From positions 186,813 through 250,812 of the forward strand of contig CAVRKK010000001.1 in NCBI GenBank assembly GCA_963722385.1: DNA of 64,000 nucleotides, given 5' to 3'. Origin of the DNA: an uncultured bacterium. GTDB taxonomy: Bacteria > Babelota > Babeliae > Babelales > Babelaceae. The translations under genes and the position numbers were made by a program. A model generated the notes under the pieces. That model searched no databases, was not told the origin of the DNA, and was given only the letters and a program-made list of their open reading frames with translations. Each line of letters opens with the position of its first letter. Within the stretch, counting starts at the first letter, position 1. This document shows, in pieces, positions 29,847-30,202 of the stretch.

Positions 29847-30202
29847 ATCGCGTACGGCTGACGGAACAGAGCGAATTGAATTGAAATTGAATCGCCTGCC
29901 CGGCTGGGGGCTAAGGGACATCGTCCCTTAGCAAATCCCCAAAGCGTTATGCTTACAGGCTTGGTGTGTGTAGTTATCGTTCGCCAAAGCGCACGATAAC
30001 TTACGCCATTATCATGTGCGCTACGCTTCATGATAAAAATCTATTTTCCGTCAGGAAAATTGCGGTAGCCATAATCATGCGCCACGCATGGTTATGGCAT
30101 TGAAAAAGAAAAGACAGAGCATATGCTACTACACATATTGGTGTGGGTGCAGGGCCGCTGCCCTGCCGCTCGACGCGGAGTCGCCCCAGCCGGGCAGGCG
30201 AT
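29847..30202 (+). repeat. Structured palindromic repeat element, copy A (MITE-like unit 29889-30202 with 20-nt terminal inverted repeats)
   Basis: The TIRs are AATCGCCTGCCCGGCTGGGG (29889-29908) and CCCCAGCCGGGCAGGCGATT (30183-30202). Six hairpins lie between them. The core 29847-30068 is near-identical to the reverse complement of 37259-37478. Confidence 0.85.

Follow-up and report, generated by a model that had tools for sequence, protein, structure and literature searches.

What kind of genetic element is the array of palindromes which separates two convergent genes in this bacterial genome? A first-pass annotation, made from the letters alone, described a non-coding unit of 314 bp bounded by perfect 20-nt inverted repeats and suggested a MITE, a REP/BIME-type mosaic or a highly structured RNA. 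In the following, the window denotes the whole 64-kb stretch of DNA which was analysed, and the array is termed copy A. Our answer is that copy A is, with reasonable probability, a member of a lineage-specific, dispersed family of non-coding mosaic palindromes in Candidatus Dependentiae, of the MITE/BOX/BIME kind. The family is best read as a new, lineage-restricted example of a familiar bacterial repeat kind and not as a new kind of system. There is a small chance that its mobilisation mechanism or a role at the RNA level is new.

Genomic setting and host

Copy A fills a gap of 425 nt between two convergent genes:

28687-29826, + strand: 379-aa gene without family matches, one flank of copy A
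30252-31151/31199, - strand: EamA transporter gene, the other flank of copy A

The spacer is identical in an independent ENA assembly (L022; 425/425 nt). Because of this identity the sequence of copy A is no assembly artefact. The 379-aa protein was considered as a transposase and rejected; it has no match in Pfam, NCBIfam or PDB and its sequence does not have the look of a nuclease. The nearest named homologues of the RNase Y encoded in the window belong to metagenome-assembled genomes of Candidatus Babeliaceae/Dependentiae. Ankyrin-repeat proteins are encoded as well, which suits an intracellular symbiont as host. No tRNA or tmRNA gene was found in the window.

Arms, hairpins and predicted fold of copy A

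The 314-bp unit with its perfect inverted repeat is real. The left arm, AATCGCCTGCCCGGCTGGGG, is located at 29890-29909 and has its exact reverse complement at 30184-30203; every coordinate of the first-pass annotation was 1 nt too low. When up to three mismatches are allowed, this 20-mer is found three times in the window vs 0.01 times expected by chance. All six stem-loops described between the arms were recovered when the fold was computed, and the microrepeat said to adjoin the left arm is present at 29873-29889. With corrected coordinates the features of copy A are:

29848-29872, + strand: left module common to copies A and B, TCGCGTACGGCTGACGGAACAGAGC, outside the left inverted repeat; the A/B alignment begins here
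29873-29889, + strand: (AATTG/AATTGA)n microrepeat, GAATTGAATTGAAATTG, abutting the left arm
29890-29909, + strand: left arm, perfect 20-nt inverted repeat
29910-29932, + strand: hairpin 1, 10 bp, loop of 3
29962-30008, + strand: hairpin 2, core 29972-30001 with 9+3 bp and GTAG just before the core; the outer extension is a 7-bp stem, 29962-29968/30002-30008
30009-30036, + strand: hairpin 3, TTATCATG.GCG / CGC..CATGATAA, 8+3 bp, paralogue of hairpin 5
30043-30060, + strand: hairpin 4, 7 bp; the near-identity of A and B stops just past it, and copy C opens with it
30068-30098, + strand: hairpin 5, 14 bp with one U:G pair and GTAG before it; compensatory changes between copies
30099-30146, + strand: variable spacer, unalignable among copies A, B and C
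30149-30166, + strand: hairpin 6, 7-bp stem of G/C only; it opens the G+C-rich tail common to A, B and C
30184-30203, + strand: right arm, perfect inverted repeat; sequence common to an unseen further copy begins 1 nt inside its outer end

The earlier proposal that hairpins 2, 3 and 5 share one architecture through amplification of an ancestral palindrome holds in part. The 5' arm and the loop are nearly identical in hairpins 3 and 5 (GCCATTATCATGTGCGCTACGC vs GCCATAATCA--TGCGCCACGC), and an internal duplication behind this pair is plausible; hairpin 2 is alike in outline only. A reading of the TTATCATG/CATGATAA palindrome as Fur-box-like was dropped, the likeness being probably coincidental.

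Folded as RNA, the region 29845-30210 yields -173.1 kcal/mol for the + strand (z = -9.7 against dinucleotide shuffles) and -156.7 kcal/mol for the - strand (z = -8.9). In the minimum-free-energy fold all six hairpins are closed by a long-range stem in which the inverted repeat is extended to 22 bp. Sixteen intergenic gaps of the window with lengths of 150-700 nt were folded (a 17th, of 1075 nt, is beyond this range), and that of copy A is the most structured among them. The element is also richer in G+C than its surroundings, i.e., 52% in copy A, 54% in copy B and 58% in copy C vs 45% for the window.

Such a very strong predicted structure could belong to a functional RNA, either a large non-coding RNA or a module which acts in cis, in a 3' UTR or between cistrons, on stability or processing of the rny and neighbouring transcripts; it would exist in paralogous copies. 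Owing to one U:G pair the + strand folds better than the - strand by 16 kcal/mol, and each copy lies in sense orientation just downstream of a gene. Yet both strands fold almost equally well, and the orientation of copies A and C is uninformative because both are between convergent genes. Convincing promoters or terminators were not found: copy A contains no intrinsic terminator and copy B a single weak match on the antisense strand; promoter-like matches occur at chance level, one of them, on the antisense strand of hairpin 3, being conserved in A and B. A scan of the whole window against Rfam returned nothing at gathering thresholds, with implausible eukaryotic microRNA and snoRNA models as the best sub-threshold hits; this agrees with the earlier statement that no described family was recognised.

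Copies B and C

Two more copies are present in the window. Copy B separates rny from ymdB. Copy C is partial and has a DOT1-like methyltransferase gene and a gene for 1636 aa as convergent neighbours.

36236-37054, - strand: ymdB, flanking copy B
37066-37532, - strand: copy B, 467-nt composite insertion reaching from the rny stop codon to the ymdB ribosome-binding site
37120-37139, - strand: degenerate right arm of copy B
37124-37481, - strand: core of copy B, homologous to copy A
37493-37532, - strand: extra outer microrepeat and arm-like module of copy B; the arm-like part, AATCGCCTGCTTGGTGGGTG, is at 37493-37512
37533-39092, - strand: rny, flanking copy B
48709-48877, + strand: copy C, consisting of hairpins 4, 5 and 6 and the G+C-rich tail, no left half

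The alignment of A and B extends over ~356 nt, that of copy C over ~170 nt. A and B are almost identical over about 226 nt, from 29848 to 30071, and only ~85% identical beyond. They diverge from hairpin 5 on, with ~88% identity in the G+C-rich tail. Copy C is 72-89% identical to A and B. The similarity of A and B extends leftward beyond the left arm for 42 nt, and the same microrepeat is found ahead of both arm-like sequences in copy B. At the position of A's right arm copy B has CGCCCGCTGCGTAAGCGTTC and copy C a third variant. Out of 20 positions the right arm of B forms 12-14 Watson-Crick pairs plus 2 G:U pairs, and copy C possesses no left arm. Only copy A has the perfect inverted repeat. 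For annotation pipelines this holds a lesson: the repeat unit is not necessarily delimited by a perfect terminal inverted repeat seen in one copy.

In A and B, GTAG stands directly before hairpins 2 and 5; it is missing before hairpins 1, 3, 4 and 6, and hairpin 5 of C has GTTTG in its place. The tail of copy B carries two GCTGCGTAAGCG motifs, and its core is flanked by 15-nt direct repeats, GCCT(A/C)GGCGAAGTCG, 375 nt apart. Solitary copies of any hairpin are absent from the 64-kb window. Three separable modules emerge, i.e., microrepeat plus arm, hairpins 1-4, and hairpins 4-6 plus the G+C-rich tail. Since copies A, B and C differ in module content, the family is a mosaic of modules. Its subfamilies differ in age: parts of A and B are near-identical, as are parts of copy C and of a copy linked to topA.

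Empty sites in relatives

In four relatives (L026, L027, L030/L031 and L032), whose RNase Y is 84-90% identical to that of the window, the spacer between rny and ymdB measures 4-9 nt vs 478 nt here. Comparison of the junctions shows 467 inserted nt (37066-37532), which fill exactly the interval from the rny stop codon to the ymdB ribosome-binding site. A similar picture emerges for copy A. In L030 a spacer of 77 nt separates the EamA gene from an amino-acid permease gene, an interval which here contains copy A and the 379-aa gene. The loci of the relatives (L026, L027 and L030-L032, ~62 kb) were searched with blastn and nhmmer at sensitive settings, and no similarity to the element was detected. 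Thus, the element was inserted, and its sites are empty in the relatives; we infer that insertion was by transposition. A target-site duplication was not seen. The arms of copy A are not accompanied by a direct repeat of >=2 nt (left flank ...GAAATTG, right flank TACTCTA...), and none is present at the junctions of copy B when compared with the empty sites.

The copies seen directly, A, B and C, are all within 19 kb, and local duplication could also yield such a set, which tells against a dispersed family. In its explicit form this objection states that the copies are non-mobile by-products of local rearrangement. An inversion around the 7-kb EamA-ymdB block would have been accompanied by a segmental or inverted duplication, and template switching would have given rise to the palindromes. 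A and B are indeed mutually inverted, the block which they flank has the opposite orientation in contig L023, target-site duplications are lacking, and the 15-nt direct repeats around the core of copy B could be traces of such an event. However, apart from the insertions the gene order around A and B is that of the relatives, the flanks of copy C and of the copy linked to topA are unrelated, further copies are implied by contig ends, and the two subfamilies differ in age (A/B near-identical over 226 nt vs C at 72-89%). We regard a purely local origin as extremely improbable.

Copies beyond the window and wider searches

Are there further copies? Logan contigs behave like assemblies with k = 31. 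This was checked at a known repeat boundary: L034, L035 and L024 end where the last 30-mer (29848-29877) becomes common to A and B and the 31-mer is still unique. Two contig pairs from different samples end elsewhere, L042 and L043 at 30173-30203 and L037 and L038 at 48738-48768. The inner 30-mers of these terminal 31-mers occur only once in the window. Contig ends at single-occurrence 30-mers point to a further copy with an A-type right end and to another one with a C-type hairpin 5. The right boundary shared with the unseen copy matches the outer end of copy A's right arm to within 1 nt. In a JGI contig (L040) the methyltransferase gene is followed by the C module up to ...CACAGGCGC, then by a new flank (GCTCGCTGCGTAAGCGCTTCAGACTGCTTGGTGGAAGCC...) and the start of topA; the new flank carries the family motifs GCTGCGTAAGCG and CTGCTTGGTGG. 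Taken together, the contig ends and one hybrid contig imply at least two copies outside the window, a signal which strain variation could mimic in part. The first-pass annotation had made its MITE reading dependent on additional copies in the genome; with B and C inside the window and at least two copies implied beyond it, the unit is repeated.

The 10 kb to the right of the window (L028) hold no further copy. A degenerate hairpin-5 pattern gave 15 single matches in a collection of genome contigs, from unrelated phyla and all attributable to chance. The same holds for three matches of the 20-mer in a metagenome contig collection, which are in coding regions of high-G+C contigs and share no similarity in the flanks. 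A scan of viral contigs with hairpin 2 and distant blastn searches of plasmid and phage collections yielded nothing; in particular, no insertion sequence or plasmid with these ends came up in the plasmid, phage and viral searches. Neither a 61-aa pseudo-ORF nor, subsequently, the concatenated six-frame translation has a match among 5.8 billion proteins, and the non-coding nature asserted earlier is upheld for all six frames. Transposase, integrase or Y1 domains are absent from the window ORFs and from the gene tables of the fetched loci (including L022 and L028). The negative pseudo-protein searches and collection scans make a very abundant or widespread family unlikely. With ~74 kb of the genome examined, it looks low in copy number and lineage-restricted. 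A search of the literature retrieved no description of interspersed repeats in Dependentiae (TM6).

Maintenance of the stems

Hairpins 4 and 5 comprise 21 pairs, three of which have changed on both sides among copies A, B and C (U-A to C-G, C-G to U-A and A-U to C-G). In these two hairpins 98% of the cells are paired, and the loops vary freely. As counts from three sequences such compensatory changes, including those in the closing stem described next, are suggestive rather than statistically strong. The closing stem tells a similar story. Copy B of L022 differs from copy B of the window by two bases only, and both are in the left arm (AATCGCCTGCgCGGCTGGcG). Both substitutions restore Watson-Crick pairs with B's own diverged right arm. 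Therefore, the long-range stem covaries between A and B. Judged by its sequence, the window's copy B with its A-type left arm looks like a product of gene conversion from A.

The upkeep of the stems fits pairing as RNA, pairing as single-stranded DNA, or one protein which recognises both ends. Compensatory stem changes next to variable loops would be expected from a functional structured RNA, but the spacer is unalignable, whole modules are absent from C, and the same operon is devoid of the element in four close relatives. With two strands that fold, no promoter or terminator, variable modules and relatives which lack it, a dedicated RNA function is weakened and in our judgment unlikely.

Comparison with known repeat systems

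MITEs are short (<~500 bp), non-coding and A+T-rich, with terminal inverted repeats of ~4-30 bp, a target-site duplication, dispersed copies and a parent transposase (PMC10969869, PMC3049150). The element is non-coding, has dispersed copies and is of suitable size, whether one takes the 314 bp between the arm ends, the 356 bp of A/B homology or the 467 bp of insertion B; it has no target-site duplication and is not A+T-rich. Could it be a canonical MITE nonetheless, i.e., an insertion sequence shortened by deletion which a transposase acting in trans recognises by its 20-nt arms, with A as a young intact copy and B and C decayed or nested? Several features invite this view: the 314 bp with perfect 20-nt arms, several copies with empty sites in relatives, and, in the right arm, a start of the sequence common to the unseen copy 1 nt inward from the outer end. 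Between A and the L022 copy B the two arms change together, as expected if one protein must bind both ends, and the whole insertion B ends in an arm-like imperfect inverted pair, too, AATCGCCTGCTTGGTGGGTG ... CACCAACCCCAGCAGCAAT (read by eye). Direct repeats fade with age (PMC10969869), but the perfect and presumably youngest copy A is without one. The A/B similarity ignores the left arm and goes on for 42 nt outside, the element is G+C-richer than the genome whereas MITEs are typically A+T-rich, neither the window nor the extra 10 kb encodes a transposase, and no insertion sequence or plasmid with these ends was found. The missing target duplication together with the ragged left boundary argues against a simple MITE of a DDE transposase. 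Adding the degenerate arm of B, copy C without a left half, the G+C-richness and the lack of a transposase, a MITE bounded by the 20-nt arms is unsupported, and we rate it as rather unlikely. What stands of the first-pass interpretation is a non-coding, repeated, inserted, palindromic mosaic. The mosaic family itself must do without a target-site duplication, a cognate transposase within 74 kb and a defined left terminus, points which weigh against it as well.

BOX elements of Streptococcus pneumoniae and S. suis (boxA-boxBn-boxC) are modular, their end modules pair, and they affect co-transcribed genes (PMC3049150). The element is likewise composite, modular, non-coding and interspersed. In both cases paired end modules close the structure around a variable number of inner hairpin modules; here, a closing stem of 22 bp surrounds independent inner hairpins, and the modules differ among A, B, C and L025. 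Both have a tight predicted fold if co-transcribed, occur between genes and within operons, and encode no transposase themselves. They differ in that perfect 20-nt end arms exist in one copy of the element only, that its inner modules are heterogeneous hairpins instead of a tandem array of one box, and that its copy number is seemingly a handful vs more than 100. BOX belongs to another phylum with no known sequence relationship, and owing to phylum and composition homology to boxA, boxB or boxC is unlikely.

The Correia elements of Neisseria are short, too, and their terminal inverted repeats pair in the transcript, as the arms of copy A would. They measure 100-155 bp, have a TA target duplication, occur in hundreds of copies and lack an inner hairpin array, in all of which the element differs. 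The Neisseria terminal stem is a target of RNase III (as cited in PMC3049150, PMC10969869). By analogy, cleavage by RNase III is a plausible fate of the 20-22-bp stem of copy A.

The BIME/REP (PU) sequences of Enterobacteria and the REPIN-RAYT systems are mosaics of imperfect palindromes at extragenic but transcribed sites, i.e., at 3' ends and between cistrons, as is the element. The GTAG head, carried by two hairpins here, and the absence of a target-site duplication are shared. REP-like effects on mRNA stability and recombination are to be expected for the element. In contrast to REP/BIME sequences, its palindromes are never single in the window, it is far less dense, the array lies within a long-range 20-nt stem, and no RAYT is seen in the examined DNA. 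Specifically, GTAG-headed hairpins might be spread by a single-copy RAYT (a Y1/HUH transposase) encoded elsewhere, with the arrays as BIME-like clusters. The GTAG immediately before hairpins 2 and 5 of A and B, an inconsistent feature, is a hint of such a route; the mosaic arrangement, palindromes at gene 3' ends and between cistrons, and the lack of target-site duplications, as expected of Y1 transposases, are in line with it, as is the GTAG palindrome of Coxiella QMITE2 (PMC5896051). Yet hairpin 5 of copy C has GTTTG instead, hairpins 1, 3, 4 and 6 have no GTAG at all, a Y1 transposase domain is encoded neither by the window ORFs nor in the gene tables of the fetched loci, the copy density seems far below that of typical REP families, and no hairpin stands alone in the window. 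A RAYT-driven REP/REPIN system is improbable on these grounds.

Coxiella burnetii has MITEs of 150-400 bp, one family of which contains a GTAG palindrome (PMC5896051). QMITE1 and QMITE2 (PMC5896051; PMC10969869) resemble the element in size (300-400 bp for QMITE1), intracellular host, inverted repeats at the (here putative) ends and a transcript with strong predicted folding. An internal GTAG palindrome marks QMITE2, which sits in 3' UTRs and intergenic regions. Further, truncated copies without ends resemble REPs, and the copies are useful for tracking rearrangements. Compared by description, QMITEs differ in having flanking direct repeats (2-3 nt or 7-11 nt) and ~50 copies per genome; here no such repeats and far fewer copies are seen. 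Among described repeats, BOX elements, BIMEs and the QMITEs are the nearest analogues, and for none of them is a sequence relationship to the element known.

Spread and potential effects

How may such a mosaic palindromic family have spread? No transposase is encoded in 74 kb, so the element would be non-autonomous. Copies would have been inserted in trans by a mobilising enzyme encoded elsewhere, and homologous recombination of the RecA type together with gene conversion between copies would then have reshaped the family. Recombination or conversion between copies would explain the near-identity of A and B over 226 nt next to ~85% beyond. The element would have no dedicated cellular function, its main effects being side effects. 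Where it is co-transcribed with an upstream gene, as copy B would be inside the rny-ymdB operon, the hairpin array would hold up 3' exonucleases or offer a target to nucleases. By analogy with BOX, BIME, ERIC and Correia elements (PMC3049150, PMC10969869), the upstream mRNA is probably protected or cleaved and the downstream cistron attenuated, which would be most relevant for rny-ymdB. As DNA, inverted copies would be substrates for inversion, and at present the family would mostly be a substrate for homologous recombination.

A bolder view goes beyond this and is very unlikely. It takes the element as a hairpin-dependent mobile element of an undescribed kind which makes no target duplication, inserts right after stop codons and is kept by the pairing of its ends. 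The multi-hairpin domain of 300 nt would function as RNA or as single-stranded DNA, either as a guide or scaffold for a recombinase or as an RNase Y/RNase III processing module which uncouples rny from ymdB, and the inverted copies would make a 7-kb segment flip back and forth in the population.

Under the mosaic-family reading, the compact genomes of Dependentiae, obligate symbionts of protists, still gain and reshuffle selfish structured DNA. A hairpin array of 467 nt dropped into the conserved rny-ymdB operon amounts to a natural experiment.

Apparent recombination between copies

The copies appear to recombine. An NCBI contig (L023), from another assembly of the same species, contains rny, followed by a hybrid element with B-type left markers and an A-type right half and then by the EamA-ankyrin region. 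This may be a flip of the 7-kb segment through a crossover in the ~135-nt identical stretch of the inverted copies A and B, or else a chimeric join. Because the gene order in the window is that of the relatives, the window order is ancestral. The repeat marks a candidate 7-kb inversion polymorphism, and it explains breaks and mis-joins of short-read assemblies at these loci in this organism. A smaller event is recorded in contig L025, likewise from another assembly of this species: precisely the 75 nt which separate two direct GAATCGCCTGC modules of copy B are missing there.

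A possible rearrangement between the two repeat copies

Comparison of the window (29845-37481) with a second contig, L023 (GCA_052916045.1), uncovers a different order of genes: in L023 rny is connected to EamA via a hybrid repeat, the left part of which corresponds to copy B, the relative of the hairpin-rich element (copy A), and the right part to copy A itself. In the orientation of L023 the intervening 7-kb block, EamA-ankyrin-amine oxidase-SOD-ymdB, would be inverted, and this would part rny from ymdB. The join is either a genuine polymorphism or a chimeric assembly.

In L022, an independent ENA assembly (contig_70460), ymdB is annotated as a 149-aa fragment; coordinates here are shifted by 2 nt with respect to the window.

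L022 12120-12858, equivalent to window 36236-37054: ymdB

The fragment reflects one of two things: indel errors in a long-read assembly, or a true frameshift downstream of insertion B.

The GC skew shifts at about 38 kb, a point which adjoins copy B and rny, from about 0 to values of -0.1 to -0.25 (38000-64000), and it stays negative up to the end of the window. The change may simply follow from the succession of minus-strand genes here; alternatively, a replication-related switch may lie at this point.

The gene beside copy A

28687-29826: 379-aa gene, its start probably a signal or transmembrane segment

Searches of Pfam, NCBIfam and PDB returned zero matches for this gene. It is missing from the EamA-permease interval of a relative (L030), so this gene and copy A came in at one and the same site.

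Hairpins within and outside the repeat

30008-30036 (-) and 37292-37320 (+): sigma-70-like sequence match in hairpin 3 of copies A and B
34118-34151: 15-bp hairpin GCTCTAAGGGGAGGG-GCTA-CCTTCCTCTTAGAGC, 3' of a 70-aa gene

The sigma-70-like match, TTATCA-17-GATAAT, lies within hairpin 3 on the antisense strand of the element, is kept in both copies and is directed back into the upstream gene. The 15-bp hairpin, after which there is no T-run, has GCTCTAAG/TTAGAGC in common with hairpin 5 of copy B; hairpin 1 of the element is similar to it as well. Gene-end hairpins of this genome may have been the raw material of the repeat.

Tandem repeats, paralogues and a sulfatase pair

47-5281: tandem array of three paralogous genes (434, 586 and 654 aa)
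10560-12665: second tandem pair (349 and 298 aa)
12926-16222: 1098-aa gene, lactonase/WD40-like beta-propeller blades (repeats 13064-16005)
5308-7850: adjoining genes for a sulfatase and an FGE-sulfatase (formylglycine-generating enzyme)

The three larger paralogues possess common DNA blocks which are 63-92% identical. None of the five tandem paralogues has a Pfam match, and both groups are candidates for expanded effector families. The 1098-aa gene is made of about 20 tandem units, each 141-147 nt (about 48 aa) long and 60-90% identical; the length and regularity of this propeller array are unusual for a reduced genome. The sulfatase/formylglycine-generating enzyme pair is likewise surprising in the reduced genome of a symbiont.
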